Part shown: positions 31,168-61,100 of the stretch, one piece after another
Layout of the letters: each line of letters starts with the position of its first letter
Numbering within the stretch: the first letter of the stretch is position 1
DNA from: an uncultured Verrucomicrobiae bacterium
GTDB lineage: Bacteria; Verrucomicrobiota; Verrucomicrobiia; Limisphaerales; JAFGQR01
Assembly: GCA_963788655.1 (NCBI GenBank)
Contig: CAWBHS010000049.1
Location: 1-64,000 of the forward strand
DNA length: 64,000 nucleotides
Direction: 5' to 3'
Translations under genes and position numbers: made by a program
The notes under the pieces: model-generated
What the model saw: only the letters and a program-made list of their open reading frames with translations
The model's database searches: none
What the model was told of the DNA's origin: nothing

Positions 31168-33345
31168 TCAATAAGGCAAAGGATATCTTGCTGTCAATTC
31201 CCGGACACGTTGCCGCACCTGCGCGGGCGGCGTCAAGATTCTTTAATGTCCAGCAAAACCTCGCTGATCATGTCCGCAATCGCCGCCATTTCCGGCTCTT
31301 TCATGCCGCGCGTCGTCACGGCCGGTGTGCCCAGCCGGATGCCGCTGGCCTGGAAGGGCGAGCGCGTTTCAAACGGAATCGTGTTCTTGTTCACCGTGAT
31401 GCCGGCTTCGTCGAGCGCCAGTTGGCAGTCCTTGCCGGTCACGCCGCGGGCGCCCACGTCCACGAGCATCAGGTGGTTGTCCGTGCCGCCGCTGACCAGC
31501 CGGAAACCGTTTCGTTTCATGCCTTCGGCCAGGGCCAGGGCGTTCTTCACGATTTGCTGCTGGTAGTTCTTGAAACTCCGGCTGCAGCGCTTCCTGAAGA
31601 CAAACCGCCTTGGCCGCGATCACATGCATCAATGGGCCGCCTTGAATGCCGGGGAAGGTCTGCGAATCAATTTCCTTCGCGTATTTTTCCGGGCAAAGGA
31701 TCAATCCGCCGCGCGGGCCGCGCAAGGTTTTGTGCGTCGTGGTCGTGACAAAATCCGCGTGCGGCACCGGGCTGGGATGCAATCCGGCCGCAACCAGGCC
31801 GGCGATGTGCGCAATGTCCGCCAGCAGGTACGCGCCCACTTCGCGCGCGATCTCGCCCATGCGCTTGAAAGTCAATGATGCGCGGATAGGCGCTGGCGCC
31901 CACGGTGATCATTTTCGGCCGGTGCTCGCGCGCCATGTTGGCCAGTTGATCGTAGTCAATCCGCTCGTCGTCCTTGCGCACGCCGTAATGGACGATTTCA
32001 AAAAACTTGCCCGGAGAAATTGACCTTGTTGCCGTGGGTCAAATGGCCGCCGTGGCTCAGGTCCATGGTCAGCATCTTGTCGCCCGGTTTCAGAAAGGCG
32101 AAATAAACCGCCATGTTGCGCCTGGCTGCCGGAATGCGGCTGGACGTTGGCGTGTTCGGCGCCGAACAGTTGCTTGGCCCGGTCGATGGCCAGTTGCTCC
32201 GCCACATCCACGTTTTCACAGCCGCCATACCAGCGTTTCCCGGGATAGCCCTCGGCGTATTTGTTGGTGAGCACCGAGCCTTGCGCTTCCATGACGGCGG
32301 GACTGGTGAAGTTTTCGCTGGCGATCAGCTCGATGTTTTCCTGCTGCCGCACGCGTTCCCGCTCGATCACCGCGGCAATTTCCGGATCGACGGCATTCAA
32401 ATCGAGGTCCATCAACGGCTGGCTGGGTTCAAGCTTGTTGACGCGGCGTTCGTGGCGGCCGCCTTCGAATTTGGAATTGAGGAACGCTTCGAGAATGCGT
32501 TGCGCCAGCTTCGGTTCGGTGCCTTTGCCGGCCAGACACAGGATGTTGGCGTTGTTGTGTCGGCGCGCGGTTTGGGCCATTTGCTCGTCCCACACCAGCG
32601 CGGCGCGGGCGCCCGGAACCTTGTTGGCGGCGATGCTGACGCCGATGCCGGTCGTACATACGAGCACGCCCAGTTCGAATTGGCGTTCGGCCACGCTGCG
32701 GGCCAGCGCTTGGGCCGTATCCGGGTAGTCGGTGGATTCGGTGTCGTGCGCGCCGAAATCGACGACGTCAACGTCATGTTCGCTCAGGAAGGCCTTGAGG
32801 TGTTCTTTCAGTTCGTAGCCGCCGTGATCGGAGCCAAAGGCAAGGATGAGTTTATGGGTTGGCGAAGATTCCATGGGGAGGGAGCTGGAGGTTTGTTCCA
32901 GAAATTTCACAACGGACGTGATGCCTTGTTCGATCTGGTTGCGGCATTGCACATAGATGTCATACGACCCGCCGATGGGATCGCCGATGTCTTTTTCATA
33001 ACTCGGTAATTCTTCATTGAATTCCCGCAGCAAAAATGTCTTTTCCGCCGCCTGCGGATAGAGCAGGGCGATGGATTCCAAGTGGCTCTGCGTCATGCCA
33101 AAGATGTAGTCCACCTGGCGCACCAGCTCGGCGGACAATTGGCGGCTGCGAATCGCGGAAATATCCACGCCCACCTGCTGGCAGGCGCGGATCGCAAATT
33201 CACTCGGCGGCAATCCCGAGGAAGCCCCGACGCCCGCCGACAAGGCCCGGAAATCCCCCCGACCCTGGAGGGCGTGCCGGAAGAGGCCCTCGGCCATGGG
33301 GCTGCGACAAATGTTGCCGGTGCAAACAAATAAAACCGTCTTCAT
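31168..33345 (-). CDS. glyA: Fusion of LMW phosphatase, ribose-5-phosphate isomerase B and serine hydroxymethyltransferase (frameshifts only in the GlyA part)
   Basis: One frame carries [13 protein letters not shown]...DPIGG, then GSDHGG...CTTGIG..AANK...[10 protein letters not shown], then LIASENF...NKYAEGYP. Later pieces give [13 protein letters not shown] and SGGTDNHL. Confidence 0.92.
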
Positions 33346-40695: not shown

Positions 40696-41940
40696 ACGAC
40701 TAGGTTTCGGAGTTTCTTATTGGCAGTGCTCGGGGGGTGTCTGGTGGGTGCCCCCGCGTGGGCGCCGGCTTGTTCGGTGCCGGTTTTCCGCTACGCCCTC
40801 GAACGATGGCACGCTGATGCCTATGAAGCCGTCGTGTTCCATCGCGGCGCATTGAAGCCGGCTCAAAAGGCGTTGGTCCATGATTTGGAGCAGAATGGCT
40901 TGGCCGGCGATCTTTACGCCAACCTCGAAGTGGAGGAGGTCGATTTGGCTGCGGACCCGGATGCGGCCCTGCTGAAACTGTGGCAGGAACATCCGGCCGC
41001 TGCTCTGCCCGCCGTGGTGTTGCGCTATCCGCGGATGTTCGACATTCCCATCAACGCCTGGTCGGGACCGCTGAACGAGACCACCATCAAACAATTGCTG
41101 GATTCACCTTTGCGCCGAAACATCGCCCGCCAGTTGGTCAAGGGAATGTCCGCGGTGTGGGTGCTGTTGGAGATTGGTGACCAAGCGCGCGACGATGCGG
41201 CGGCCAAGGTCCTGGAAACGCGATTGCAACAGCTCGGAAAAACGATGGAAGCGCCCAAACTCGATCCGGGCGATGTTGCCGGCGGGCTGGTGTCGGTGTC
41301 ACCGGAGGCCCTGAAGCCCAACTTTTCCATGGTGCGGCTCAAGCGAAATGATCCGGCGGAATCGGCCTTGGTCGAGATGCTGTTGGGCATCGAGGAGGAT
41401 TTGCACGAACTCAAGGAGCCGATTGCCTTTCCGGTGTTTGGTCGCGGACGAGCGTTGTTCGCGTTGGTGGGGAAGGGGATTGTGCCCGACAACATCGATG
41501 AGGCTTGTCAGTTCTTGTCGGGTCCCTGTTCGTGCCAGGTCAAAGAACTCAATCCGGGCGTCGATCTCCTGATGGCGGTGAACTGGGATGACGAAGTGTA
41601 CGGCAGCTTGGTCAGCACTGCGCCGGCACTGCCTGAGTTGACGGGAGTGGCGGGTTTTGCCGCCGAGACAAATCAGCTTGCTCCCCAAGCCACGGCTGAG
41701 CCGACGTTGCCGCCGGAGAATGCGGCGAAACCACCGGCGTTGGCTAACCGTACCAAGCGGGAGCCAACCGCGAAGACCAAGCCCTCCGGGGTGGTGGCCT
41801 TTCCGTTGAAGACGGCCGCCAAAAAGGAAGCCGAACCTCAAAGCGTCAACCGGGTGATGTTTAGTGTTGCCGTTGTGGGCGGAGTTGTCTTTGTGATGGC
41901 CTTGGGAGGAACCTTGTTGCTGCTGCGTCGGAAGCCGTGA
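40681..41940 (+). CDS. Exported protein with a C-terminal membrane anchor, unknown function
   Basis: Signal peptide then CSVPVFRYALERW; FPVFGRGR; GPCSCQVKELNPG; C-terminal TM followed by RRKP. Confidence 0.75.
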   Translation: MSALRTTRFRSFLLAVLGGCLVGAPAWAPACSVPVFRYALERWHADAYEAVVFHRGALKPAQKALVHDLEQNGLAGDLYANLEVEEVDLAADPDAALLKLWQEHPAAALPAVVLRYPRMFDIPINAWSGPLNETTIKQLLDSPLRRNIARQLVKGMSAVWVLLEIGDQARDDAAAKVLETRLQQLGKTMEAPKLDPGDVAGGLVSVSPEALKPNFSMVRLKRNDPAESALVEMLLGIEEDLHELKEPIAFPVFGRGRALFALVGKGIVPDNIDEACQFLSGPCSCQVKELNPGVDLLMAVNWDDEVYGSLVSTAPALPELTGVAGFAAETNQLAPQATAEPTLPPENAAKPPALANRTKREPTAKTKPSGVVAFPLKTAAKKEAEPQSVNRVMFSVAVVGGVVFVMALGGTLLLLRRKP

Positions 41941-42042
41941 AGCCGTGCAAGCACATGCGGCGTTCGTGGTGGAGTGATGCGATTAATCCAGCCGCGCCAA
42001 GGGTTGACAGCGCATCCGAGTTTATGTCGGTGTTCGCCGGCT

Positions 42043-42630
42043 GTTCCCTCTCCCCGAGGGAGAGGGTCAGGGTGAGGGGGAACAGTGGATTCGACCTGCG
42101 CAGCCGGTCCACATGGAATGGCGTTTGCCCTCCGCGATTTTCAAACGTTATGGATGGCCGGACGGTTCCTTCCCCCTCACCCCGGCCCTCTCCCCCGGGG
42201 AGAGGGAGAATCGCCCTCCGCTGGTTTGAAATACTGCAAGTGCTCGGTTATTCGTACGGCTTTACCACAACCAGAGAAGAGGCGGAGATTGGAATTGTCG
42301 CTTTCGAACGTCTCGCGGCCGACGACGATTGTTCCCTCTCCCTTAGGGTGAGGGGGAACAGAGCGGGCCTCCCGTGCAGCCGGTTCGAATGGGACAGCGA
42401 AGGCGCTCCACGAATTTCTAGCGGCGCGGGTGGCAGAACGGTTCCTTTCCCCTCACCCCAGCCCTCTCCCCGGGGGAGAGGCAGAACGTTCGACGCTGGC
42501 GGAGTGGGGCGAACGCTTGACGACTATTCGTCGCGGCATTCCAAGTGGCGCCAGGTGGGGCGCGTCACTCCGTGCGCGCTGGTGAATTCACAGCATGCCC
42601 TTTGCTTCGTTCGCGGCGCGCAAAGGACTT
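42043..42630. repeat. Cluster of four CCCTC-type REP units plus a degenerate GTAG-type doublet
   Basis: Units at ~42043-42082, 42170-42207, 42331-42359 and 42448-42481 in alternating orientation. Confidence 0.8.
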
Positions 42631-42778: not shown

Positions 42779-44056
42779 ATGACTCTCTGGCGTTTGGTTT
42801 GGCGTGAAATTGTGCATCGGAAGGTGAACTTCCTGTTGGGGTTGCTGTCCGTTTCGGTGGCCGTCGGTTGCCTGGTGGGAGCGGTTACGTTGCTAAAGAC
42901 CGACGAAATCCGTACGGGCCAAATTCTCGCTCAAAAGCAGAACGATGTGAAGAAAGCCGGCGCCGAATTGGAGGACTCCATGCGCAAAATCATGAAGGGT
43001 CTGGGCTTCAACATCCTCATTCTTCCGCAGGACCAGGACTTGAACGAGTTGCACCTGGAGGGCACGCTCTCCAAAACCATGCCGGAAGCGTACGTGGACC
43101 GTTTGGCCAAATCGACGATTGTCACGGTCAATCATCTGCTCCCTACGGTGGTCAAAAAACTAACGTGGCCTGAAAAGAACATCCCGATCATTCTCCAGGG
43201 TACGCGTGGTGAGGTGCCGCTGCTGCACGTGGACCCCAAGAAGCCGATTCTCGACGCGGTCCCGCCGGGCAAGATCATTTTGGGTTACCGGATTCAGCAA
43301 CAACTCAAATTGAAGCCCGGCGACAAGGTGACGTTGCTGGGCAAAGACTTTACCTATCTCAAAGCCTACGCGGAACGCGGGACGGCGGATGACAGCACGG
43401 TGTGGATTCATTTGAGCGAAGCGCAGCAACTGTTGGGCATGCAGAACCTCATCCATGCCATCCTGGCGTTGGAATGCCATTGTGCCGGCGATCGCGTGGC
43501 CGTCATTCGCGAAGATGTCACCAAGATTCTGCCCGGCACGCAAGTGATCGAACGCGGTCCGCCCGCGCTCGCCCGCGCCGAAGCCCGGAATCAAGCCAAG
43601 GTAACCGCCGAACAGTCTTTGGAACTGGAAACCGCCAACCGTGCGAAAATGCGCCAACAACATGAGAATCTCGCGGCCGTGCTGGTTCCCGTCGTGCTGA
43701 TTGGCTGCGCGATTTGGATCGGTTTTCTGGCCTTCGCCAACGTGCGCGAACGCCGCGCGGAAATTGGTATTCTGCGGGCGATTGGCTTCCGCTCGACCCA
43801 AATCCTGCGGGCCTTCCTGGGCAAAGCGCTGGTAATCGGCCTGGTGGGCGCGGTCGTGGGCATCGTCGGTGGATTGCTCGTCAGCGCCAATCTGGGTGAG
43901 GTGGCGGCGGGATCGGTCGGTTGGCGGCAATTAGTCGATGGCAACACCCTGCTTGTCGCCGCCGGTACGGCGATCTTATTGTCGGGCTTTGGCAGTTGGA
44001 TTCCAGCCGTCCTCGCGGCCCGCCAGGATCCGGCGGTGGTGCTGCAGACGGAATAA
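42779..44056 (+). CDS. FtsX/MacB-type ABC transporter permease
   Basis: N-terminal TM, periplasmic domain, NVRERRAEIGILRAIGF, WIPAVLAARQDPA. Confidence 0.9.
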   Translation: MTLWRLVWREIVHRKVNFLLGLLSVSVAVGCLVGAVTLLKTDEIRTGQILAQKQNDVKKAGAELEDSMRKIMKGLGFNILILPQDQDLNELHLEGTLSKTMPEAYVDRLAKSTIVTVNHLLPTVVKKLTWPEKNIPIILQGTRGEVPLLHVDPKKPILDAVPPGKIILGYRIQQQLKLKPGDKVTLLGKDFTYLKAYAERGTADDSTVWIHLSEAQQLLGMQNLIHAILALECHCAGDRVAVIREDVTKILPGTQVIERGPPALARAEARNQAKVTAEQSLELETANRAKMRQQHENLAAVLVPVVLIGCAIWIGFLAFANVRERRAEIGILRAIGFRSTQILRAFLGKALVIGLVGAVVGIVGGLLVSANLGEVAAGSVGWRQLVDGNTLLVAAGTAILLSGFGSWIPAVLAARQDPAVVLQTE

Positions 44057-44061
44057 GCACC

Positions 44062-44724
44062 ATGGCCCTGCTGCAACTCGAACAAGTCAGTAAAACCTAC
44101 CGCCGGCAAGGCGATGGCGAGGTACGCGCGCTCGAGGGTGTTTCGTTGTCGCTCAAGGCGGGGCAATTTATGGCGGTCAAAGGCCCGAGCGGTTGCGGCA
44201 AAACCACCTTGCTGCTTCTGGCCGGGGGGTTGCTCGAACCGACTTCCGGCCGCGTCGTCATCGATCAGCAGAATCCGTATGCCTTGCCGGCGGACCAACG
44301 CGCGCGGTATCGAGCTGCGGCCGTTGGTTTCGTGTTTCAACAATTTCATCTGGTGCCGTACCTCAGTGTGCTGGACAACGTGCTGACGCCGGCCATTGCC
44401 GCGGGCAACGCTGAGGCCCTGCCCCGGGCCAAAGAACTCATCGCGCATTTTGGTTTGGAGCCACGCCTGCATCACGTGCCAGGTGAACTGAGCACCGGTG
44501 AGCGGCAACGGACCGCCCTGGCGCGGGCATTGTTGAATCGACCCAAACTCCTCCTGGCCGACGAGCCCACCGGCAATCTCGACCGCGACAATGCGGATGC
44601 GGTCCTGCACTACCTCGCCGAGTTCGCCAAGAACGGCGGCGCCGTCTTGCTGGTTTCCCATGACGACCATGCCGTCCAACATGCGATGGACGTGATTCAA
44701 CTGCGCGCCGGTCGGCAGATTTGA
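44062..44724 (+). CDS. ABC transporter ATP-binding protein (LolD-like)
   Basis: GPSGCGKTT, GFVFQQFHL, LSTGERQR, LLADEPTGNLD. Confidence 0.92.
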   Translation: MALLQLEQVSKTYRRQGDGEVRALEGVSLSLKAGQFMAVKGPSGCGKTTLLLLAGGLLEPTSGRVVIDQQNPYALPADQRARYRAAAVGFVFQQFHLVPYLSVLDNVLTPAIAAGNAEALPRAKELIAHFGLEPRLHHVPGELSTGERQRTALARALLNRPKLLLADEPTGNLDRDNADAVLHYLAEFAKNGGAVLLVSHDDHAVQHAMDVIQLRAGRQI

Positions 44725-44800
44725 GTCAATGACCATAGCGCTTTTCGACCAGCTCACACCCAACGGACGACCTATGATCCGGCTCTCGCGCAATCAAGTT

Positions 44801-44911
44801 TCAACGGGGGCGAAAAACGGAAATCAATTTGAGTTCGGTTGCCTTGTTTCCTCTTGAACGAATGGCCGCGATGACTTGCGACCGCTTCTTTTTAGAAAGC
44901 ACGTCGGCCAT
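44801..44911 (-). pseudogene. vsr: 5' fragment of a very-short-patch repair endonuclease gene
   Basis: MADVLSKKKRSQVIAAIRSRGNKATELKLISVFRPR-stop matches the Vsr N-terminal pattern (D...RS..M..IR...TE). Confidence 0.7.
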
Positions 44912-44919
44912 GTTGCTGT

Positions 44920-45057
44920 TCACGCCTTCGCGCAAAGCTCGCTGTCCTTTTTGGTGAACTCGCGGGACTTTTCTTCCATCCCGCTCTTTTTTAAGGCTTC
45001 TTCTTCGGCGATGCCTTGGTCTGCCGCATATTTCCGCACGTCCTCCGTTATCTTCAT
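44920..45057 (-). repeat. thiC 3'-tail copy 1 (open 45-codon ORF)
   Basis: [45 protein letters not shown] resembles the ThiC C-terminus after the last Fe-S cysteine. Confidence 0.8.
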
Positions 45058-45063
45058 GGCAGG

Positions 45064-45324
45064 TCAGCGGTAAACTTCGCGGCGGTGGCGCACGCGGTTG
45101 ACGCGCACGACGCGAATCTCGTCGGCAATTTCGTAAACCACGCGGTAGTCGCCCACGCGGATGCGCCAGTCGTGCTTGCTGCCCGCCAGTTTACGGCAAC
45201 CGGGCGGGCGCGGATTCGTCGCGAGTGCTTGAATCGCCGCGATGACGCGGTCGTGAATCTCGGACGAGAGGCGGGCGAGGTCTTTCTCGGCGGCGCGTTC
45301 AAGCAGGACGCGATACATGGTCAC
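45064..45324 (-). CDS. RelE/ParE family toxin
   Basis: YRVLLERAAEKDL...NPRPPGCRKLAG...WRIRVGDYRVVYEI...VRHRREVYR. Confidence 0.93.
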   Translation of the reverse strand: MTMYRVLLERAAEKDLARLSSEIHDRVIAAIQALATNPRPPGCRKLAGSKHDWRIRVGDYRVVYEIADEIRVVRVNRVRHRREVYR

Positions 45325-45521
45325 TTGCGGTTGCGCTCGGCGAGGTAGTCCTCCAGCGGACGATAATGGAGCGGCTTGCGGCGGGCGCGCTTGAGCCAGG
45401 CCACATCGTCAGAATCCTCCACCCGCTCCAAAAGTTCCTCGTAGTCCTTGATGGGGATGATGACGGAGACGGGTTTGCCTTTGCGCGTCACGATTTCAGG
45501 TTCGGACAATGTTGCTTTCAT
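45321..45521 (-). CDS. Phd/YefM-like antitoxin
   Basis: PEIVTRKGKPVSVIIPIKDYEELLE; its stop overlaps the toxin GTG start. Confidence 0.88.
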   Translation of the reverse strand: MKATLSEPEIVTRKGKPVSVIIPIKDYEELLERVEDSDDVAWLKRARRKPLHYRPLEDYLAERNRK

Positions 45522-45541
45522 GGCCTGCAGGTTATCACCGT

Positions 45542-45676
45542 TCACGCCTTTGCGTAAAGCTCACTGCCCTTCTCGGTGAACTCGCGGGACTTTTCATCCA
45601 TCCCCTACTTCAACGCCATTTCCTCGCCGATGCTTTGTTCGGCGGCGTATTTCTGCACGTCTTCCGTGATGTTCAG
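45542..45676 (-). repeat. thiC 3'-tail copy 2 (degenerate, CTG start, internal stop)
   Basis: LNITEDVQKYAAEQSIGEEMALK*GMDEKSREFTEKGSELYAKA; 32 residues identical to copy 1. Confidence 0.8.
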
Positions 45677-45822
45677 GCGGCAAACGTAGTGGAATCAACG
45701 CCGACTGCAAAGGCGGGAATTACGCCCGGCGAGTCGCCGAACGCGGCAGGCAGGATGCGCTGCGCTATTTTCATTTTTCTGCTTGGCGGCATGTCCGCCA
45801 CGCCGGATCCCAGCACACAAGC

Positions 45823-48800
45823 TCAAGGGCCGACACTCGTCGTGAAATTCGCGGAGTTCTTCCCGCGTTTGTTTTCATAGCCGATGCCGGCGTGCCATTC
45901 GCCCTGACCGGTGGGTCGGATGGTGCCGTTGAAGACTCCGGGGCTTTGGCCCTTCTCCAATTGCGCGGCGGCTTGCATCGCCATGCCGGGCATGTCCATC
46001 CGCAATTCGAGCCAGACCGATCCCACATCCACCGGCTTGCCGGTGGCGTCGGTGACTTCGATGCGAATCGCGTTGTCGCCCATGCGAAGTTGCGTGCCCT
46101 CGCCAAGGACTTTGAACTGATAGGGGCCGACGGTCTGGGTGGTTATCACCGCAGTGGGTGTGGACGGACCGCTCAGGCTGTGCCACAACCACCAGCCGCC
46201 GCCGCCCAGCACCAGGGCTCCAATGACGATCGAGGCGATCAATAGCTTGCGCACCGGCTTCGCTTCAGCCGGCGGCGCTTCGACTCCGCGACTGCGCCAC
46301 AGGAAATAAACCAGCGGGACGATCAGCAGGGTAAGGATCGTGGTGCTGACCATGCCGCCGACCATCGGCGCGGCAATGCGTTTCATCGCCTGGGCGCCGG
46401 TGCCGTGGCTCCACATGATCGGCAGCAGGCCGGCGAAGATCGCGAAGAAGGTCATCATCACGGGCCGCACGCGTTGAGTCGCGCCGTCGCGGACGGCTTC
46501 CATCAGAGCGCCGTAGGTGGGTTTCGGATTATTCTTCTTGAGGTTCTTCCAGGCCTCGTCGAGATAGACGATCATCACCACGCCGATTTCGGTGGCCACG
46601 CCCGCCAGCGCGATGAAGCCGACCGCCACCGCCACGCTGAAGTTGTAGCCGAGCAGCCAGATAAGCCAGATGCTGCCCACGGTGGCGAACGGCAGCGTCA
46701 GCAGCACGAGGAACACTTCGACCGGATTTCGGAAGTTGAGATACAACAACACAAAAATGATGACCAGGGTCATCGGGACCACCAGCGCGAGGGTGGCACG
46801 CGCCTCCTGCATGTATTGATATTGGCCGCCCCAGCCGAGGAAATAGCCCGGTGGCAACTTGATGTGTTCGGCAACCAGTTTCTTGGCGCTGGTCACGTAG
46901 CTGCCCAGGTCAATCCCCTTGGTGTCCACGAAGACGAAGCCGTTGAGCAGTCCGTTTTCGTCGCGGACAAAGGCCGGCCCGGTGGTCAGATGGATGTCGG
47001 CCAACTGTTCCATCGGCACCTGGGCGCCGGTGGGCGTGGCCACGAGCACGCGGCGCAGCGCTGGCACGTCGTGGCGCAACGCCGGTCCGTAGCGGATGTT
47101 GATCGGATAACGCTCGCGGCCCTTGATTACCGTGGAAATGGTCATGCCGCCGATGGCCGATTGAATGACGTCCTCCACGTTCCCCACCGTCAGGCCGTAG
47201 CGGGCGATCGCCTTGCGATTGATCTCGAAGTTGACGTAGTAGCCGCCGGTGACCCGCTCCGAGAAAACGGTGGCCGTGTGCGGGTCCTGTTTGAGCAACG
47301 CCTCAATTTGTTCGCCGATCTTTTGAATGACGCCGACGTCGGGGCCATAAACCGTGATGCCAATCTGGCTGCGGATGCCGGTGGAGAGCATTTCCGTGCG
47401 GGTCTGGATGGGCATCCACCAGATGGCCGGCGCACCGGGAGTTCGCACCAATTTGTCCAGGCCTTCCTTGATTTTGTCGAACGTCATGCCAGGACGCCAT
47501 TGGTCCTCGGGTTTGAGGGTGATTACGGTTTCCGTCATGGACAGGGGCGCGGGGTCCGTGGCGGTGCGGGCACGACCGACCTTCCCATACACATGCTCGA
47601 CTTCGGGGAAGGTCATGAGCGCGGCGTCCTGCTTTTGCAGAATCTTCTTCGCCTCGGTGATCGAGATTCCCGGGACGCTGGTGGGCATGAACAGCAGCGA
47701 GCCTTCATTCAACGGCGGCATGAACTCCGATCCAATCCGGCTCAACGGAAACCAAGTGATCGCGAGCACCGCCAGCGCCAGCAGCAGCGTCACCCATTTG
47801 AACCGGAGCACGAAGTTGAGAAACGGCCGGTAGATCCACGAGAAAAAGCGGCTGATCGGATGCCGGTGTTCGGCGGCGATTTTGCCGCGGATGAACCACA
47901 CCATCAGGATCGGCACAATGCTCACGGACAACAAGGCCGCGAAGAACATCGAGAAGGTCTTGGTATAAGCGAGCGGCTTGAACATCCGGCCCGACTGCGC
48001 CGTGAGCGCGAACACCGGCAGGAATGACACCGTGATGATGAGCAGGGAAAAGAACAGCGGCTTGCCCACCTGTTTGGCGGCGGAAACCATCACGTCCAGG
48101 CGCGTCATGCCGGCGATCTCCCGTTCCACCTCGGTCAGGGCTGCGTCGCCTTCCTGGTCGCGTTTGGCGCGGGCATGGTTCCACCGTTCGAGCCATTTGT
48201 GGGCGTTCTCGATCATGACCACCGCGGCATCCACCATCGCACCGATGGCGATGGCGATGCCGCCCAGCGACATGATATTGGAGGAGACGCCGAGCGCCAC
48301 CATGGCGATGAAGGAAAGCAGGATGGCGACGGGCAGAACCAGAATCGCGACGAACGCGCTCCGGAAATGAAACAGAAAGAGAATGCAGACCAGACTGACG
48401 ATGATGCTTTCCTCAATGAGTTTGCTCCGGAGATTGCTGATGGCGCGCAGGATGAGATCGGAGCGGTCGTAGCCGGTGACAATCTTCACGCCGGGCGGTA
48501 GCGACGGCTTGAAAGCTTCCAGTTTGGCTTTGACGGCCTGAATGGTCGTGAGCGCGTTCTCACCGTAGCGCATTACGACGATGCCGCCCACGGCCTCGCC
48601 TTTGCCATCCCAATCGAGCGCGCCGCGGCGCAGGTCCGGCGCGAAATGGACGTTCCCGATCTGCTGGACGGTAATGGGTGTGCCATTGGTATCCACTCCG
48701 ACCACAACGTCTGCGATGTCGCTCAGGGTCTTGATATAGCCCATGCCCTTGACCATGTATTCGGTCTCGCCGTATTCGATGACCCGGCCGCCGACGTCGT

Positions 48801-49545
48801 TGTTGGAGTCGCGGATGGCCATGATGACCTTGGTCAACGGGATGTGGTAGGCCAGCAGTTTGTTCGGATCCACGTCCACTTCATATTCACGGACGAATCC
48901 TCCGATGCTGGCCACTTCGGCCACGCCCGGCGTGTTTTGCAGGTAGTAACGGAGATTCCAGTCCTGAAGCGTGCGCAAGTCGGCCAGGCTGTTCTGGCCG
49001 GTCGTATCCACCAGCGCGTATTCATAGACCCAGCCCACGCCCGTGGCATCCGGCCCCAGCGTGGGCCGAATGCCCGGTGGCAGATCGCCCATGGCCTGGT
49101 TGAGATATTCCAACACGCGGGAGCGCGCCCAATACATGTCGGTGCCGTCCTTAAAGACAACGTTTACGAATGACAGGCCGAAGAACGTCTGGCCACGCAC
49201 ATATTTGACGTGAGGTGCCGCCGACAGAACACTGACGATGGGATAAGTGATCTGGTCCTCGACCAACTGCGGATCCCGGCCCGGCCATTCCGTGAAGACA
49301 ATGACTTGAACATCGGACAGGTCGGGAATCGCATCGAGCTTGACGTTCTTGACGGCCACCACTCCGGCGACGATGAGAAACAAGACACCCACCAGCACAA
49401 GGAACTGATTGTGCGAGCACCAGCCGATGATGCGTTCGATGGCGGTTTCGTCACTGACCAGCCAAGCGGGTTTCGCGGCAGACGGACTTTCTTGCCCCGG
49501 TTTGCCGGCCGGTTCGTCCGCTTGCGTTGGTTTATCCGGGTCCAT
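45823..49545 (-). CDS. cusA: CusA/CzcA-family heavy-metal RND pump with an extra C-terminal TM and YtkA-like domain
   Basis: [59 protein letters not shown]; intact 1240-aa frame. Confidence 0.93.
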   Translation of the reverse strand: MDPDKPTQADEPAGKPGQESPSAAKPAWLVSDETAIERIIGWCSHNQFLVLVGVLFLIVAGVVAVKNVKLDAIPDLSDVQVIVFTEWPGRDPQLVEDQITYPIVSVLSAAPHVKYVRGQTFFGLSFVNVVFKDGTDMYWARSRVLEYLNQAMGDLPPGIRPTLGPDATGVGWVYEYALVDTTGQNSLADLRTLQDWNLRYYLQNTPGVAEVASIGGFVREYEVDVDPNKLLAYHIPLTKVIMAIRDSNNDVGGRVIEYGETEYMVKGMGYIKTLSDIADVVVGVDTNGTPITVQQIGNVHFAPDLRRGALDWDGKGEAVGGIVVMRYGENALTTIQAVKAKLEAFKPSLPPGVKIVTGYDRSDLILRAISNLRSKLIEESIIVSLVCILFLFHFRSAFVAILVLPVAILLSFIAMVALGVSSNIMSLGGIAIAIGAMVDAAVVMIENAHKWLERWNHARAKRDQEGDAALTEVEREIAGMTRLDVMVSAAKQVGKPLFFSLLIITVSFLPVFALTAQSGRMFKPLAYTKTFSMFFAALLSVSIVPILMVWFIRGKIAAEHRHPISRFFSWIYRPFLNFVLRFKWVTLLLALAVLAITWFPLSRIGSEFMPPLNEGSLLFMPTSVPGISITEAKKILQKQDAALMTFPEVEHVYGKVGRARTATDPAPLSMTETVITLKPEDQWRPGMTFDKIKEGLDKLVRTPGAPAIWWMPIQTRTEMLSTGIRSQIGITVYGPDVGVIQKIGEQIEALLKQDPHTATVFSERVTGGYYVNFEINRKAIARYGLTVGNVEDVIQSAIGGMTISTVIKGRERYPINIRYGPALRHDVPALRRVLVATPTGAQVPMEQLADIHLTTGPAFVRDENGLLNGFVFVDTKGIDLGSYVTSAKKLVAEHIKLPPGYFLGWGGQYQYMQEARATLALVVPMTLVIIFVLLYLNFRNPVEVFLVLLTLPFATVGSIWLIWLLGYNFSVAVAVGFIALAGVATEIGVVMIVYLDEAWKNLKKNNPKPTYGALMEAVRDGATQRVRPVMMTFFAIFAGLLPIMWSHGTGAQAMKRIAAPMVGGMVSTTILTLLIVPLVYFLWRSRGVEAPPAEAKPVRKLLIASIVIGALVLGGGGWWLWHSLSGPSTPTAVITTQTVGPYQFKVLGEGTQLRMGDNAIRIEVTDATGKPVDVGSVWLELRMDMPGMAMQAAAQLEKGQSPGVFNGTIRPTGQGEWHAGIGYENKRGKNSANFTTSVGP

Positions 49546-49550
49546 GTAAC

Positions 49551-50927
49551 TCAATGCTGATGTCCACCGCCGGTCGCTGAGGTGCGAAGCTGGCTTTCGC
49601 TGTCCAGCAGGAAGTTGCCGTCCACCACGACTTTTTCGCCTTCCGTCAGTCCTTGATTCACGACCACTTGTCCGCCCTCGACATGAGATCCCAACTCAAT
49701 GCGCCGGGGAACGAAGTGTCCGCTGGTCACCTCCACAAAAACATACTGGCTGACGCCGGTGTCATACACCGCCGTCTGCGGTATCAACAGGCGTTCGCCC
49801 GCATCAACCTGGATTTCCGCGTTGGCGTAGTCATTGGGTTTGAACAGCCCGTCGGGATTGTCCATCACCAGTCGCGCCGTTGTGGTGCGGGTCTGATTTT
49901 CTGAATACGGGTAGATGAAATCCACCTTGGCGTGATAAACTTGGCCGGGATGCGCGATGGCCGTGACCTTCACGCCTTGTCCGACTTTCGCGTAAGGCAG
50001 TTCGTATTCGTAGAGCTGGGCGTTGATCCACACGGTGCTCAAATCCGCCACGCGGTAGAGCGTTTTCCCCAAGCTGACCATTTGCGCGGGATCAATGTTC
50101 TTCTCGATCACATAGCCGGTCACCGGCGCGCGGAGCTGCAGGGTGTCGGTCGGTTTGCCGGACTTCTCCACCGCGGCGATTTCGTCGTCGCTGATTTCCC
50201 AGAGTTTGAGCCGTTTGCGGGCCGATGCCGCCAGCGTCGCCGCTTCGGTCATGCTCTCCTGCCACACGACGTTGTTGGTCTGGGCCGCATCTTTCGGTGG
50301 AAGGTGTTTCAGCCGCTCACCATGCCGGTAGGCCAGCAGGTATTCGTATTGGGCCGAATACAATTCCGGGCTGTAAATGTCCATCAGCGGATCGCCCTGT
50401 TTCACGAACTGGCCCGGCTTGTCCACGTAAAGCTTCTGGGCCCAACCCATGATGCGCGCGTTCACGTTGGCCAGCCGGGTGTCGTCGTAAGTCACAATGC
50501 CCACGGTGCGAATCGTCACCACCGCGTCACCGTTCGTCACCGCCCGGGTGCGGATGTTGATGAACTGGCGCTGCGCCAGGTCCAGATCCACCGGGCTGCG
50601 ACCGGGAACAAGTTCGTTGGTGGATGCTGTCTGGCTGCTGTGCTCGCCGCCAGGCATCGGCATGTTGCCCATGTTCGTCTCACCTATGGCTGGCGTGTTG
50701 GTGGCGGCGGGTATCGGCATCTTCATGCCGGGCATGGACTGGTTCATTCCCGTCGTGCTGCCGTGGTCGGACGGCATCGTGGAAGACTGCATGTTCGTGT
50801 CCGTGTGATTGGCCTGAGCAGCGGCGTCGGATTTCTTCCGGCAACTCACAGCCGCGAGTGCCAGCGTGGCCAGGACCACGACTGCGACCGCGGCTTTCGG
50901 GATTCGATTGATACGAGGCAGCTTCAT
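49551..50927 (-). CDS. cusB: CusB-type RND periplasmic adaptor, Met-rich N-terminus
   Basis: Lipobox-like AAVSC, MPGMKMP, YSPELYSAQYEYL, ADLSTVW, GNFLLDSES. Confidence 0.9.
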   Translation of the reverse strand: MKLPRINRIPKAAVAVVVLATLALAAVSCRKKSDAAAQANHTDTNMQSSTMPSDHGSTTGMNQSMPGMKMPIPAATNTPAIGETNMGNMPMPGGEHSSQTASTNELVPGRSPVDLDLAQRQFINIRTRAVTNGDAVVTIRTVGIVTYDDTRLANVNARIMGWAQKLYVDKPGQFVKQGDPLMDIYSPELYSAQYEYLLAYRHGERLKHLPPKDAAQTNNVVWQESMTEAATLAASARKRLKLWEISDDEIAAVEKSGKPTDTLQLRAPVTGYVIEKNIDPAQMVSLGKTLYRVADLSTVWINAQLYEYELPYAKVGQGVKVTAIAHPGQVYHAKVDFIYPYSENQTRTTTARLVMDNPDGLFKPNDYANAEIQVDAGERLLIPQTAVYDTGVSQYVFVEVTSGHFVPRRIELGSHVEGGQVVVNQGLTEGEKVVVDGNFLLDSESQLRTSATGGGHQH

Positions 50928-52333
50928 GGTTTTCTGACTTTCTCGGACGTGAGGAACGACGTTTCTCCGCCAACCAGTTTTTCCACCGTGGAGAAACCTT
51001 GCTCCCGATCCGCGACCGCCCGTTCGTAGGTTAGTTGGAATTCCAGCAGGACGCGTTCGGCATCAATGAGCGAGAGAAAATCGGATTTGCCTGACTCAAA
51101 CGAACGCTGAATCACTTTTACGTTCTCGTCCGCCTTGGGAATCAATGCGTCGCGGTAAAGGACAACCTTGCGCTCTGCGTCCTGGTACTGGAACAAGGCG
51201 AGTTGGAGGTCGGTGCTGAGGTGGTTCGCCCGGTCCCGGCGTTCCTGCAGCGTGGCGGCGTAACGACTCTCCGCCTCTCGCACGCCGGCGCGATATTTGC
51301 CCCACCAAAGCGGAATGTTCACTGAAAAACCAGCCACCACCGCGTCCTTGCCGCTGTCCGCCACTCCTGACATCCGGGCCGGACCGGTTTCAATGTAATC
51401 CACTCCCAGCGTCACGTCCGGATAGAATTCCTTTTTTTGCCAGCGCGATGTTCGCTTTGTCCTTCCCGGCCAGGTAATCGAGGCTCTTGAGTTCCGGGTT
51501 GGCGGCTTTCAACCGTTCGAGGAGGTTGGAGGATTCGGTGGAAAGTGTCGCTGGTACAATGTTGGTTGGAAACGACAGCGGCGCCTCCGCAGGGCGATTG
51601 AGGGCGGCGTTGAGCCGCGCCGCTGTCGGGTTCTTGAGGTCGTTAACGTGCGGAGACGGTCGCGGGTCTTGTCCAGTTCCACCTGCGCCTTGATCACATC
51701 ACCGTTCATGGCCGTGCCGGATTCATACTTTGACCGAGCGATTTCCTCGAATTGTTTGAGCAGTTCCACATTCGCTGCGGTGACGGAGATGGCGCGGCCC
51801 ATGTAGTAAAGTTCGTAGTAGGCCTGTTTGACCTCGTCGAACAACTTCAGTTTGGCGGCCTCGTATTGTTGCTGCGCGGCGTTCGCGCCTTCGAGCGCGC
51901 CCTCGCCTCGCAGTTTCAATTTGCCGAACCACGGGAACATCTGGCTGAGACCCACGCGTTGCTCCTGCGGTCCGACGCGCGTTTCGACTTCCTGAATAAA
52001 GTAACCATAGTTGAAGCGTGGGTCAGGCAGCGTGCGCGCCTGAGTGACCATCTCCAGCGCGGCTTTCCAACGATTGAAGGCCGCCTCCAGTTGCGGATTG
52101 TTTAACGCAGCGTAAGCAAGGTAATCCGGAAGGCCGGAGCTCGCGGTCAAGCTTGACAATCGGCCTGTGGCCGAGGCCCGGCTGGAGGACGGCGATGCGG
52201 TCGGCGCTTTGGTTTGCAGTTCCTTGAAAGCATGCCCCTCCTGAGATGTCGCGCAACCCACTGCCAGCAATAAACCGACACTTAGCAGCCAGCAGCGGTT
52301 CAGTTTCGTTCGACGGTTCCGTTTCCTGCTCAT
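50924..52333 (-). CDS. TolC/CusC-family outer membrane factor (frameshifted)
   Basis: Lipobox LAVGC, NNPQLEAA, LPDP, SQMFPWFGKL, FSVNIPLW, FLSLIDAER. Confidence 0.88.
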
Positions 52334-53824: not shown

Positions 53825-56270
53825 TCAGAGTGCCGTCTTCCGCAACCGCAGGGCGTTGCCGACGACCGACACCGAACTGAAGCTCATGGCGGCGCCGGCA
53901 ATCATGGGGTTGAGCAACAACGCCAGGAAGGGATACAGCACGCCGGCGGCAATCGGGATGCCGATCGCATTGTAGAAGAAGGCGAAAAAGAGGTTCTGCC
54001 GAATGTTCCGCATTACCGCCCGGCTCAGGTGAAAGGCCTTGGCAATGCCCATTAGGTCGCCTTTGACCAGCGTGATGCCTGCGCTCTCGATGGCCACGTC
54101 CGTGCCGGTGCCCATCGCCACCCCCACGTCAGCCGCCGCCAGGGCGGGCGCGTCATTGATGCCATCGCCAGCCATTGCCACCACGGCGCCCTGACGCTTG
54201 AGTTGTTTGACGATCTCGTGTTTCTCCTGCGGCATGACCTCGGATTTCACCTCGTCTATGCCCAATTCGCTTGCCACGGCTTCGGCGGTCTTCCGGTTGT
54301 CACCGGTACAGCATGATTATTTTGATGCCGAGTTGGTGCAGCGTCTGGATGGCTTCGCGGGTCGAGTCCTTGATCGGATCGGCAATGCCCAACAGCCCCA
54401 GGGCGTGATCGCCTTGGGCCACCCAGACGACCGTTTGGGCTTTTTCCTGGAGCGCGAGCGCGCGTTGGCTGAGTAGGTCGGTAATACTCACGCCGGCCTC
54501 ACGCAGGAACTTTTCTTTGCCCACACGCACCAGATCGCCCTGGATCTTGCCCTGCACGCCGCCACCGGTCGTGGACTCGAAGGCGTCCACGGACTCGAGT
54601 TGAATCTCCTTTTCCTTGGCCGCGTCCACAATCGCCCGAGCCAAAGGATGTTCGCTTTGTTGTTCGATGGAGGCCGCGAGCTGCAGGAGTTTCTTGTCGT
54701 CCAACTCTGCGGCAGGAACCATGTCGGTGATCTTTGGTTTGCCGGCGGTCAGGGTACCGGTTTTGTCGGTAACGAGGTGGGTTACCTTTTCAGTGCGTTC
54801 GATGGCTTCGGCGTTCTTGATCAAAATCCCCGATTGCGCCGCCCGGCCGACGCCAACCATGATGGACATCGGCGTGGCCAGGCCCAAGGCGCAAGGGCAG
54901 GCGATGATCAGCACGGACACGGCGTTGACCAGCGCGTAAGCCAGCGCAGGTACCGGTCCCCATAAGGCCCAGACAATGAACGTCAGAATGGCCGCGCCAA
55001 TGACCGCCGGCACGAAATAACCAGCGACTGTGTCCGCGAGCTTTTGAATTGGCGCCCGGCTGCGCTGCGCCTCCGAGACCATCTGGACGATTTGCGCCAG
55101 CAACGTTTCGCTCCCGACCTTCTCCGCGCGCATGAGAAACGCCCCGGTCTGATTTACGGTCGCGCCAATGACCTGGTCGCCCGCGCCTTTGCTCACCGGG
55201 ATGGGTTCGCCGGTGATCATCGACTCGTCCAGGTTGCTTATACCTTCAATGATGACGCCGTCCAACGGCACCTTTTCGCCGGGCCGGACGCGGAGTTGGT
55301 CGCCTTTCTGGAGTTCGTCAACCGGAACCTCTTCCTCCTGACCGTTCCGAACCCGGTGGGCCGTTTTGGCGGCCAGGCCGAGCAACGCTTTGATGGCCTG
55401 GCCGGTGCGGCTGCGCGCCTTGGCCTCGAGCATTGGCCCATCAACACCAACACGGTGATCACCGCCGCGGCTTCAAAGTAAAGCCCCACCTCGCTGCCGT
55501 GCCGAAATGACGCCGGAAAGATTTGCGGGAATACCACCGCCACGGCGCTGTAAAAGTAAGCTGCGCCCACGCCCACCATGATCAACGTGAACATATTCAG
55601 GCTGCGATTGACGATGGATTTCCAACCGCGCACAAAGAACAGACTGCCCGCCCACGAAGACCACCGGTGTCGTCAAGGCGAATTCGATCCATTTGGAAAT
55701 ACCCCTGGGGATGACGGCCTCCACATCAAGGCCCAACCAACCGCCCATCGCGATCAGTAACACTGGAATGGTGAGCCCCAGCCCAATCCAAAACTTGCGT
55801 GCCAGCGAGCGGATTTCCGCATCGTCCGCCGTCGGCGTAGCCACCGTCTTCGGTTCGAGCCGCATCCCGCATTTCGGACAATCTCCCGGATGGTCCTGCT
55901 CGATTTCCGGGTGCATGGGGCAAGTGTAGATGGTCCGGCGTCGAGGCGGGCGCGGGCGTTATCGACTCGAGCGCCATGCCGCATTTGGGGCAATCGCCGG
56001 GCTCATCCGAAACCACTTCCGGATGCATCGGGCAAGTGTAGCGACCTCCACTCGCCCGAGGCGGATCCGCATCCATTGCGCCGGGAAAATACTTTTGCGG
56101 TTCAGTGCGGAATTTTTCCAGGCAGTGTTGGCTGCAGAGTAGTAGGTGGTGTCCAGGTGCTCCTGAGTTCCGGCGGCATCTTCCGGCCGGATCTCCATAC
56201 CACAAACGGGATCTTTTCTGGTTCTTTTAGTGTTTGTTCCGGGTTTGGCGTTTTTCATTGATGTGCTCAT
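53825..56270 (-). CDS. copA: Cu(I)-transporting P1B-1 ATPase with YHS and CPMHP metal-binding domains (frameshifted)
   Basis: [21 protein letters not shown] (two copies), [33 protein letters not shown]. Confidence 0.92.
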
Positions 56271-58161: not shown

Positions 58162-61100
58162 TCATGCCGGCACTTCGGTCACAACCGGCGGTGGCAGTTG
58201 GGTCTGCCGCCGGATGGCCCGCGAACGCCACAGGTAATAGATCGCCGGGAAGACCACCAGTTCCATGATCACCGAGGTGACCACGCCGCCGATCATCGGC
58301 GTGGCGATGCGCTTCATCACGTCGGCGCCCGCGCCGTGGCTCCACATGATCGGCAGCAGGCCGGCAATGATCACCGCCGCCGTCATGGCTTTGGGCCGGA
58401 CGCGCTTGACCGCGCCGTGGTAGATGGCGTCGCGCAGGTCGGCCAGGTGAGCGCATCAGTCCCTTTCTGCGTCCACTCGTCAAAGGCCAGGTCCAGATAG
58501 AGCAGCATGACCACGCCGGTTTCGGCGCTGATGCCGGCCAGCGCAATGAGGCCGATCCAGACCGCGACGCTCAGGTTGTAGTGCAGCCAGTAAAGCATCC
58601 AGATCGAGCCCACCAGCGCGAACGGCACCGCCAGCAGGACGATGGCGGTTTTGATCGCCGAGCGCGTGTTCAGGAAAATGATCAGCGTGATGATGAGCAG
58701 CGTGACCGGCACGACGAGCATCAAGCGTTGCTTGGCGCGCATGCATGTATTCGTACTGGCCGCTCCAGAAGAGGTTGTAGCCGTGCGGCAGGTTGATCTG
58801 GCCTTTGGCGATGGCTTCGTTGCACGGCGTGCTGGGCCATCTGCACGTAGGTGCCGACATCAATGTCTTTGATGTCCACGTAAATCCAGGCGTTGGGCAC
58901 CGGCGCCCTCGCTCTTGATGCCCGCCGGGCCGTCCACCACTTTGAGCGTGGCCAGTTCGCCCAGCGGCACCTGGGCGCCGGTGGGCGTGGGAATGACGAC
59001 CTGGTCGCGCAAGGCCTGCGAGGTCCTGGCGGTAATCCCGGTCGTAGCGCAGGTTGATCGTGTAGCGCTCCAGTCCTTCGACCGTCGTGGTGAGCGGCAT
59101 GCCGCCCAAGGCCACGGCCAGCACGTCCTGCACGTCGCCGAGGGTCAGGCCGTAGCGGGCGATGGCGTCGCGATTGATTTCGAACTCGACGTATTTCCCG
59201 CCCATGACGCGTTCGGCGTAGGCGCTGGTGGTGCCCGGCACCTCGCGGACCACGGCTTCGATTTGCGCGCCGATCCGTTCCAGCGTGGCCAGGTCGGGGC
59301 CGGCCACCTTGATGCCGACCGGCGTCTTGATGCCGGTGGAAAGCATGTCAATGCGCGTCTTGATCGGCATGGTCCAGGCGTTGGCCAGGCCGGGGAACTG
59401 GATCGCGCTGTTCATCGCGTCCACCAATTCGTCCGGCGTGCGCCGGCGGTGGGCGATGACGTTGCCGTCGTCGTCCTTGATGTCCACTGCCGGCCATTCC
59501 TCTTCCGGTTTGAGCATGATGGTGGCTTCGATCATGTTGAGCGGCGCGGGATCGGTGGCGGTGTCCGCGCGGCCGACCTTGCCGAAGACGTGTTTCACTT
59601 CCGGGAAGCGTCTTGATGATCTTGTCGGTCTGCTGCAGCAGTTCGCGCGCTTTGGTGACCGAGATGCCGGGGAAGGTCGTCGGCATGTAGAGCAGGTCGC
59701 CTTCGTAGAGCGGCGGCATGAATTCCGAGCCGAGGTTCTGGATAGGGAAACAACTTCCCGGCCTTGAAGGCCAATTCCTTGACCGGACCATCGGGCAACG
59801 AGTCGCGCGACCAGCCGGTTCCACGGCAGGAACACCCACAGCACGGTGATCGCCGACAGCGCTGACAATCCACCAGCGCCAGCGGATCGACCCAGTCAAT
59901 CAGCGGATGATAGATCCAGATCAGAAACCGGTTGATGGGATTCTTCTCCTCGGGCGGCGATTTTGCCGCGGATGAAATAGCCCATCAACACCGGCGCCAG
60001 CGTGATGGAGAGCAAGCGCCGCCGCGGCCATCGAGTAGGTCTTGGTGAAGGCCAGCGGCTTGAACAGCCGCCCTTCCTGCGCCTGCAGCGTGAACACCGG
60101 CAGGAACGAAACCGTGATCACCAGCAGCGAATAGAACAGCGTCGGCCCGACTTCGACGCGAGGCGTCGCGGATGATCTGCCAGTGCGGCTTTCTTGCCCT
60201 TGTCGTGCTCGAGATGTTTGTGGGCGTTCTCGATCATGATGATGACCGCGTCCACCATCGCGCCGATGGCGATGGCGATGCCGCCCAGCGACATGATGTT
60301 CGAACTGATGCCCTGGCCGATACATGACCAGGAACGAAATCAACACCGCGATGGGCAGGATCACGATGGCCACCAGCGCGCTGCGGAAGTGCAGCAGGAA
60401 CAGCAATGCACACCAGCGCCACCACGAGGCTTTCCTCGAGCAGCTTTTCTTCCAGCGTCTTGACGGCGCGATCAATCAGCGCGGTGCGGTCATAGGCGAT
60501 GGTGTATTGCACGTCCGGCGGCAGCGACTTCATCGCCTGGTCGAGTCGCTTCTTCACGTCCTGGATGACCTGCGCGCGCGTTGGCGCCGTAGCGCACGAC
60601 GACGATGCCGCCGACGGTTTCGCCCTCGCCGTTCAGTTCGGCGATGCCGCGGCGCATTTCGGGTCCGAATTGCACGTTGGCCACGTCGCGCAACAGGATG
60701 GGCACGCCGTTCGCGCCGACGCCCACGGCGACTTTCCGCAAGTCGATCGAGGTTCTGGATGTAGCCTTTGACGCGCAGGATGAACTCGCGTTTCGGCCAT
60801 TTCGATCGTGCGTCCGCCGACCTCGCCGTTGCTGCGCTGGATGGCCATGCTTGACGTGCGACAACGGAAGGTTGTAGGCGCGCAGTTTCACCGGGTCCAC
60901 CGTCACCTGGTATTGCTTCACGAACCCGCCGACCGAGGCGACTTCCGAGACGCCCTGGACGGCGCTCAATTGATATTTCAAATACCAGTCCTGATACGAG
61001 CGCAGTTCCTGCAGGCTGCGGTTGGTGGAGTTGATGGAATACATGAACGCCCAGCCCACGCCCGGTGGCATCCGGACCGAGCGTGGGCGTGACGCCGCGG

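Follow-up and report, generated by a model that had tools for sequence, protein, structure and literature searches.

Repeated 3' ends of thiC around a toxin-antitoxin pair in a verrucomicrobial contig and their counterparts downstream of thiC in other Verrucomicrobiota

Why should the 3' end of thiC occur twice, on either side of a small toxin-antitoxin pair, in a stretch of DNA that contains no thiC gene? The question is raised by the first 64,000 nucleotides (nt) of contig CAWBHS010000049.1 from an uncultured Verrucomicrobiae bacterium (GenBank assembly GCA_963788655.1), referred to here as the window. Comparison with other genomes leads us to propose, as the best explanation, that the conserved 3' third of thiC is a landing pad for foreign DNA in this lineage and widely in Verrucomicrobiota. 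As to the way in which DNA lands there, we lean towards the view that incoming DNA is anchored by homology to the conserved thiC 3' end and inserts without an integrase, with long target duplication, a process that would build arrays of cassettes. The features of the window between 44801 and 45724 are as follows.

45542..45724 (core repeat 45542-45676), minus strand: upstream thiC 3'-end relic, a pseudogene covering ThiC residues ~598-656; tblastn with the 656-residue ThiC of locus L013 matches 45724-45545 (65% over 60 amino acids, aa)
45321..45521, minus strand: phd/yefM-family antitoxin gene; Pfam PhdYeFM_antitox, E = 7.4e-7; NCBIfam phd_fam, 27.6 bits against a cutoff of 20.8
45064..45324, minus strand: RelE/ParE-family toxin gene; Pfam ParE_toxin, E = 3.8e-14; NCBIfam RelE_StbE, 24.3 bits, under the cutoff of 27.9
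44920..45057, minus strand: downstream thiC 3'-end fragment, an intact 45-codon open reading frame (ORF) covering ThiC residues 612-656 with one additional Ser codon; tblastn, 80% over 46 aa
44801..44911, minus strand: N-terminal stub (36 codons) of a vsr-like gene (very short patch repair endonuclease); BLASTP, 12/27 identities (44%), E = 9e-8, to the Pfam-confirmed Vsr at L025:2362-2772

The two thiC segments are diverged direct repeats, as an earlier sequence-only reading of this DNA had described them. They are 77% identical over their 135-nt overlap; a seeded repeat of 65 nt reaches 89%, and an alignment of 226 columns that includes the flanks has a mean column identity of 82%. Both copies terminate in AAGGCGTGAAC and their peptides share 32 identical residues, as alignment and a count on the translations verified. 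The proposed identity of the peptide as the ThiC C-terminus also holds: the downstream copy matches residues 512-546 of the Arabidopsis ThiC chain 4S25_A (E = 5.2e-5), and both copies match the 656-aa verrucomicrobial ThiC of L013 (residues 612-656 for the downstream and 598-656 for the upstream copy). No window ORF matches ThiC_Rad_SAM and neither piece is a full-length ThiC; both are gene fragments. The copies had been thought to share their 5' boundary, which proved incorrect. Homology to thiC in the downstream copy begins 2 nt before its ATG, and the upstream copy retains decayed thiC sequence for ~40 nt further 5', to ~45724, with a 10-nt gap relative to L009. In the upstream copy the ATG is replaced by CTG, a TAG interrupts the frame and 3 nt are deleted.

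Between these ~135-nt repeats lies an insert of 484 nt that carries a predicted type II toxin-antitoxin system, judged from two small, adjacent and co-oriented genes with the antitoxin first and with matches to family profiles. The antitoxin ATG, at 45521, follows the TGA of the upstream copy by 20 nt (the mechanical ORF call begins at GTG 45545, within the relic), and the toxin gene overlaps or directly abuts the antitoxin stop (45321-45324). The toxin stop is in turn followed after 6 nt by the ATG of the downstream thiC copy, whose own stop is followed after 8 nt by the ATG of the vsr-like stub; all three spacings had been given correctly. A promoter-like TTGCAG-N16-TACGTT reported before the upstream thiC copy is present as a sequence but fails the sigma-70 criteria of our scan, which found no promoter-like site in 44600-46000. 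Full thiC and integrase genes had been said to be missing from the window, and this was verified by tblastn to E <= 50 and by Pfam on 67 window ORFs, none of which has an integrase or transposase domain. Neither a tRNA gene nor a composition step was found in the window, Rfam gave nothing above noise in this region, and no inverted repeats of the attC kind were found flanking the repeats, although no dedicated attC model was run.

The arrangement is found again in relatives. A protein search with the tail (lengths of 24-79 aa, E <= 0.01) gave 516 matches from 521 candidates; among the matches listed, 58 of 120 tail-matching short proteins are exactly 44 aa long and start at the same Met. A motif scan of species-representative genomes with alignment of the tails matched at least 610 stretches, 558 of which were confirmed, and the best 80 of these confirmed matches yielded the 73 loci analysed here (designated by L numbers), 58 of them titled as Verrucomicrobiota lineages. 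With full ThiC as query, the 73 loci contain 41 full-length thiC genes, 24 copies cut by the start of the contig and 39 stand-alone 3' fragments, the last spread over 31 loci. At least one fragment lies downstream in 20 of the 51 loci that have thiC and at least 3 kb of downstream sequence (eight of 30 when restricted to complete thiC), and three or four thiC-derived pieces are found in L003, L021, L022 and L043.

The thiC copies within one locus are 45-94% identical in DNA and are therefore not fresh in-situ duplications, being instead old or foreign. The ratios of nonsynonymous to synonymous substitution rates among gap-free tail copies (0.07 for attached tails, 0.05 for long fragments and 0.12 for tail-only fragments) are set by history within functional genes and give no verdict on selection of the fragments. 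In L069 a full-length thiC (tail at 4219-4347) has an in-frame stop in its tail, and a second tail fragment (4997-5164) lies ~650 nt downstream. The contig begins inside thiC in 24 of the 73 loci (including L001-L012), often at most 1.2 kb before the tail; repeated thiC ends that interrupt short-read assembly would produce such contigs.

These counts bear on an alternative in which the window records a one-off local duplication or an assembly chimera without wider meaning. There are indeed just two copies in the window and no thiC, and many window genes are split, from sequence errors or gene decay. The two copies nevertheless show differences at about one base in five as well as an indel, one of them has decayed, and the same architecture stands in 31 of 73 independent loci. 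Moreover, the junction between relic and antitoxin is common to the window and L009, where the alignment extends from the tail and its stop across the 20-nt spacer and ~75 nt into the antitoxin gene, beyond which L009 diverges. We regard a one-off event or a chimera as hardly credible. Stand-alone tails, which the sequence-only reading had asked to be counted in relatives, are common there, and on ThiC identity, recurrence, varying cargo and the lack of an adjacent integrase the outcomes that it would have taken as a refutation did not arise.

What lies between the thiC pieces is small and varied. In the relatives, 31 intervals lie between two thiC pieces; they are 65-6146 nt long (median 2161 nt) and hold 0-7 ORFs of at least 80 aa, usually 1-4; the 484-nt interval of the window lies within this size range. 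The cargo set comprises the ORFs of at least 60 aa called in the 8 kb that follow the first tail; its 504 members fall into 384 clusters, 333 of them singletons, in keeping with the earlier suggestion that the gene after each copy varies. PADLOC matched 22 of 90 first ORFs after a thiC piece and six of 75 control ORFs upstream of thiC, the latter being the three nearest ORFs in each of 25 loci (Fisher p = 0.006); three of the six control matches are generic ABC ATPases and the other three belong to one restriction-modification system. The defence genes found beside thiC pieces include those for EcoRV- and Eco29kI-type endonucleases, C5, N4/N6 and D12 methylases and a type I methylase with its specificity subunit, as well as Old/Gabija-like ATPase-nucleases, Mrr, GmrSD and YhcG nucleases, Schlafen-type proteins, a ThsB TIR protein, IetA, a PglX-like methylase and PIN and Zeta-toxin domains. 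Individual cassettes combine REase_II with a D12 methylase (L012), a type I methylase with a specificity subunit and a BstXI-like endonuclease ORF (L024) or, directly after a fragment in L025, an Eco29kI-type endonuclease, a C5 methylase and a complete Vsr.

Most of the persisting cargo consists of anti-phage defence and toxin-antitoxin genes, and many further cargo ORFs have no Pfam or PADLOC match. Of the cargo theme first put forward, the toxin-antitoxin part stands and the DNA-repair part gives way to anti-phage defence, vsr lying beside restriction-modification genes in L025. The next ORF is co-oriented in 69 of 91 cases; this figure has no control and is not counted as evidence. L022 (4534-5092) and L025 (3737-4295) share a cargo gene on the minus strand, of unknown function, with 94.5% identity over 559 nt, and the thiC tails of these two loci are 84% identical, over 134 nt only; the identity of the cargo gene hints at recent transfer.

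An integrase was sought beside the copies, as had been suggested, and none was found in the window or in the relatives. The Pfam scan covered 290 of 293 chosen cargo representatives, with 91 singletons shorter than 110 aa, ORFs upstream of thiC and ORFs more than 8 kb downstream left out. Phage_integrase, Resolvase and Recombinase domains occur in none of the 290, which include the ORFs of the 31 bounded intervals, and apart from a DDE transposase in L024 and an IS200-type transposase in L059 they contain no mobility gene. This result speaks against a second explanation, under which integrase-borne islands would enter the thiC 3' end carrying a replacement end and accrete in tandem, their integrase genes having been lost or lying off the contig. 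Direct repeats of a gene 3' end around foreign DNA are the signature of such islands and are what we observe; many contigs are short, with 24 of 73 starting inside thiC; the 5' ends of the fragments cluster at two positions; and the sole case of integration into thiC that we found, in the accessible part of its source, is a serine-integrase element inside thiC of Streptomyces coelicolor (PMC2440964). Yet the fully bounded intervals are as free of integrase and resolvase genes as the other cargo and the 67 window ORFs, the cassettes are small (median 2.2 kb) and the fragment 5' ends range over codons 400-633 instead of marking one crossover point. On balance we consider islands of this kind unlikely.

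Comparisons between loci show that thiC ends and the genes behind them keep company. The same pair of genes, encoding 179 and 81 aa, stands behind the thiC stop of a full gene in L065, of a fragment in L034 and of a contig-cut copy in L010, and further junctions are common to L001/L062, L012/L062, L014/L021, L022/L070 and L033/L043. Because the same cargo follows the thiC stop at different array positions, a thiC end and the gene behind it appear to travel or persist as a unit, which is expected if each new insertion pushes both the end and its old neighbour outward. Sites that look unoccupied also exist. In L047 (6355-6440) and L057 (10136-10220) the thiC stop is followed by two GC-rich hairpin repeats and then by a conserved flank gene that lies displaced in L003 and L044, and the same hairpin junction is seen in L068 (808-890) after a thiC piece beginning beside the contig edge; the genomes concerned are 80-88% identical in thiC and are not strain-level pairs. 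L001 and L027 have a common downstream CvfB-like gene, with different cassettes and truncation codons (495 and 607), and identities did not separate native from foreign copies. Phage and plasmid collections searched with ThiC residues 495-656 gave thiC matches only and no verrucomicrobial vector; the annotated phage and plasmid records shown are full thiC genes, the others being unannotated phage or fragment records.

From these observations we infer a recombination route, a direction of stacking and a possible mobility of the cassettes. Incoming DNA would bring its own thiC 3' segment followed by cargo and would recombine with the resident thiC through the homology of the 3' ends, either by a Campbell-type event with a circle or by a homology-anchored event with an illegitimate far join. 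The resident thiC would remain whole, acquiring the incoming 3' end, and the cargo would come to lie directly behind its stop codon, while the resident 3' end would be displaced downstream as a 5'-truncated fragment that keeps its former neighbour. Repeated events would stack cassettes with a thiC fragment between each, and recombination between repeats could delete or loop out cassettes.

The boundaries of the fragments differ between the two sides. At the 3' side they end at the stop codon, 36 of 39 extending at least to codon 633 of 656; the remaining three stop short of it, two (L007 and L009) at the contig end. The 5' ends are not conserved, contrary to what had been supposed, and span codons 400-633, with clusters near 491-497 and 600-615, the second of which includes both window copies. 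Upstream flanks of fragments that begin near Met612 are unrelated in most loci. In L043 (4990-5126 and 8370-8506) and L051 (11110-11245, approximate) a conserved ORF of 43 codons lies directly upstream of tail-only fragments, its TGA overlapping the tail ATG as ATGA. Immediately 5' of many fragments in relatives there is, in addition, a conserved AT-rich element of ~67 nt with repeated GTTGAA-like words. It has 18 strong copies in 14 of the 73 loci, all in the orientation of thiC, and they include the following.

L034: 4905-4971
L029: 7319-7385 and 9216-9281
L022: 5671-5729, 9580-9644 and 15302-15332
L003: 2022-2087 and 3097-3162

Fourteen of the 18 copies have thiC sequence within 0-151 nt on their 3' side, and that sequence begins at codons ~401, 410, 413-415, 469-472 or 489-502; the other four lack thiC homology within 260 nt, and the copy at 2022-2087 in L003 marks a cassette end with no fragment after it. 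The element forms no hairpin, folding worse than shuffled sequences (z = +1.7), has no Rfam match (nothing above noise in L029:7100-9400) and no sigma-70 match, and is absent from the window. On the other side of the junctions, no shared motif follows the stop codon, the maximum being 0.14 bit per position over 87 non-redundant junctions. Some post-stop junctions carry a TGATA-like word. Tight spacing between the thiC stop and the next ATG was considered as a sign of operon fusion and rejected, with 40 of 87 junctions (51 of 87 when a GTG within a conserved GCGTGA is included) against 217 of 514 control ORFs showing no difference.

The element and the clustering of 5' ends near Met612 speak for a third explanation, a dedicated integron-like capture in which a recombinase encoded in trans would act on the thiC tail, the 67-nt element or both, with the tail ORF as a translated leader. 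The element is co-oriented with thiC in all 18 copies and abuts a fragment in 14, ~14 fragment 5' ends lie close to Met612, no more than a few codons away and next to unrelated upstream flanks, and the 43-codon ORF overlaps the tail ATG in L043 and L051. Against these stand the lack of any recombinase candidate in our search, the failure of the element to show a hairpin or an Rfam or sigma-70 match, its absence from the window, the missing post-stop motif and a stop-to-start spacing equal to background; in one genome pair, furthermore, fragments look more diverged than attached tails (69.8% against 93.0% identity). We therefore consider such a system improbable, and the integron-like mechanism put forward in the sequence-only reading, for which neither an attC-like structure nor a dedicated recombinase was found, is not upheld. 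A broader proposal would combine these strands: Verrucomicrobiota might possess a gene-capture platform on the 3' third of thiC, integrase-free or served by a recombinase in trans, with cassettes consisting of a thiC arm, cargo and a terminal 67-nt element that are excised as circles, exchanged between species and re-inserted, and with the 44-codon tail ORF as a translated adapter. This would be functionally a second, independently evolved kind of integron, largely for defence genes; it is a speculative and rather unlikely extension.

Several points also weigh against the homology-anchored insertion that we prefer. The joining of a constant end of the 67-nt element to variable points of thiC is something that plain homologous recombination would not predict; it is a hint of a step specific to the element. 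The clustering of fragment 5' ends could mean a preferred site or shared ancestry. Repeat profiles within loci look mosaic, as do those of 42 of 278 between-genome control pairs, so that the mosaic test did not demonstrate the recombination route. Most loci are short contigs of metagenome-assembled genomes, and a recombinase gene further away or elsewhere in the genome is possible. The locus frequencies given above are not a census, because the 73 loci are the best matches of a scan seeded with the window tail. Finally, no further thiC-like piece occurs in the 64-kb window, even at the permissive tblastn limit, and since the window has no thiC the attachment of its array to thiC is drawn from the relatives only.

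How, then, should the window itself be read? The two genes that flank the array are these.

45823..49554, minus strand: CusA/CzcA-type resistance-nodulation-division (RND) pump gene; NCBIfam TIGR00914, 1146.8 bits; Pfam ACR_tran and a C-terminal YtkA-like domain
43921..44724, plus strand: convergent ATP-binding cassette (ABC) transporter ATPase gene; Pfam ABC_tran, E = 3.4e-31; the flank that ends the array

On the minus strand the order is thus CusA/CzcA pump, thiC relic, phd/yefM, relE/parE, intact thiC fragment and vsr stub, followed by the convergent ABC-ATPase gene, whose stop (44724, plus strand) is separated from the stub by 76 nt. The CusA/CzcA gene is the last of a co-oriented 18-kb heavy-metal cluster, which is the least that separates the array from any thiC and which occupies the place where relatives have thiC or another cassette; the nearest position at which a thiC might lie is past this cluster and outside the 64 kb. 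No counterpart of the ABC-transporter flank, CusA or relE was found downstream of thiC in the 73 loci; homologues of the ABC-ATPase in these loci are at most 45.8% identical and are located elsewhere than downstream of thiC. An antitoxin relative, 69% identical over 51 aa, does lie downstream of thiC in L073. The idea of an array punctuated by thiC tails fits the relatives, which carry it downstream of thiC, and applies to the window as an array with no adjoining thiC.

The vsr fragment reported after the downstream copy is real, a stub with 44% identity over 27 residues to the Vsr of L025, and is not the start of a whole gene: translations show no continuation in any frame, there is no Pfam match at E <= 0.001 and a complete Vsr domain is absent. 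Given that L025 pairs a complete Vsr with an Eco29kI-type endonuclease and a C5 methylase, the stub is better taken as the remnant of a restriction-modification cassette than as repair cargo. In the best reading, the window preserves the decayed distal end of an array, comprising relic, phd-relE/parE, intact tail, vsr stub and a deletion scar. Taken alone it is a modest find, a decayed remnant marking an old island border beside a heavy-metal cluster.

Some further features of the window were noted in passing. Genes seem to be split into adjacent ORFs at 50924-52333, 53825-55433, 58480-61273 and 31667-33345, namely those for an outer-membrane efflux protein, a P-type ATPase, an RND pump (in at least three pieces) and serine hydroxymethyltransferase, a pattern that suggests either frameshifting sequence errors or genuine pseudogenes of the heavy-metal region. 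The CusA/CzcA-type pump (45823-49554) has a C-terminal extension of ~150 residues with the YtkA-like domain at residues 1140-1221. At 41860-42600 a proline-rich word (...SP.P.GEGE/GRGR...) appears in three neighbouring ORF translations on both strands, suggesting that a short intergenic sequence is repeated upstream of the ABC-transporter genes.

The wider interest of the arrays lies in the relatives. If the thiC end, part of a universal and highly conserved gene, is a phylum-wide landing pad, the stretch between thiC and its fragments is a place to seek new defence systems in a poorly studied group, and it would show how cassettes can move between species without a mobility gene of their own. 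Such movement would be possible through a homology arm that selection on an essential pathway keeps conserved. The site also suggests itself as a neutral insertion point for engineering Verrucomicrobia and might become a genetic tool.

Several known systems resemble these arrays in part. In rhs and cdiA loci, recombination in a conserved upstream region leaves displaced 3' fragments, each with a companion gene, which accumulate behind the full gene. The stacking of displaced 3' ends and companion genes is the same here, but the variable 3' end of rhs and cdiA is itself the payload, whereas the thiC end is conserved and the payload comes after it. Integrative islands such as phage 21 and e14 in icd and SGI1 in trmE enter a gene 3' end and carry a replacement end; as with thiC, the target gene stays intact, the displaced end forms a direct repeat at the far border and arrays can accumulate. 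The thiC cassettes differ in having no integrase among the 290 cargo ORFs, in their one to four genes per unit and in their variable truncation points. Integrons likewise build a one-directional array of small, mostly co-oriented and highly variable cassettes beside a fixed platform, and chromosomal integron arrays are enriched in defence and toxin-antitoxin genes. The thiC arrays, in contrast, have no IntI in the 67 window and 290 cargo ORFs, no attI and no folded attC, and their punctuation is a coding fragment of a housekeeping gene.

The closest parallel is the insertion of restriction-modification units with long target duplication, reportedly described by Nobusato et al. in 2000. In the accessible part of a later study, units of this kind have no mobility gene and are proposed to insert, to amplify through their repeats and to be released in a cycle (Furuta, Abe and Kobayashi 2010, PMC2853133). 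They are defined there by an insert of under 20 kb, a target duplication of over 30 bp, no other mobile-element gene, homologues of both R and M genes and a single-copy empty site in a close relative. As far as this part of the paper goes, the likeness is considerable: small defence units lie within long direct repeats without integrase or transposase, and those of L012, L024 and L001 fit the definition in insert size, duplication and gene content. The sizes agree in the window (484 nt within repeats of ~135 nt) and in the relatives (65-6146 nt). The window insert is a toxin-antitoxin pair and lacks R and M genes, which are present in some relatives such as L012. The thiC arrays differ from these units in that one conserved gene end has been hit repeatedly across many species, giving stacked arrays with diverged copies, in that toxin-antitoxin and many other defence genes join the restriction-modification cargo, and in the 67-nt element at many right-hand junctions. 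Escherichia coli defence-island hotspots between core genes, according to the part of the source available (PMC10121019), likewise hold changing defence systems at a fixed position beside a core gene; the thiC site differs in being marked by fragments of the core gene and in having no mobile-element genes. No description of thiC-fragment arrays was found in the open-access literature searched, nor, judging by titles and the opening of abstracts, anything relevant that links homology-facilitated illegitimate recombination with defence systems. The arrays probably belong to a phenomenon already described, insertion with long target duplication, here at a defence-island hotspot. Their novelty lies in the reuse of one conserved gene end across a phylum, in stacked arrays with mixed defence and toxin-antitoxin cargo and a conserved junction element.

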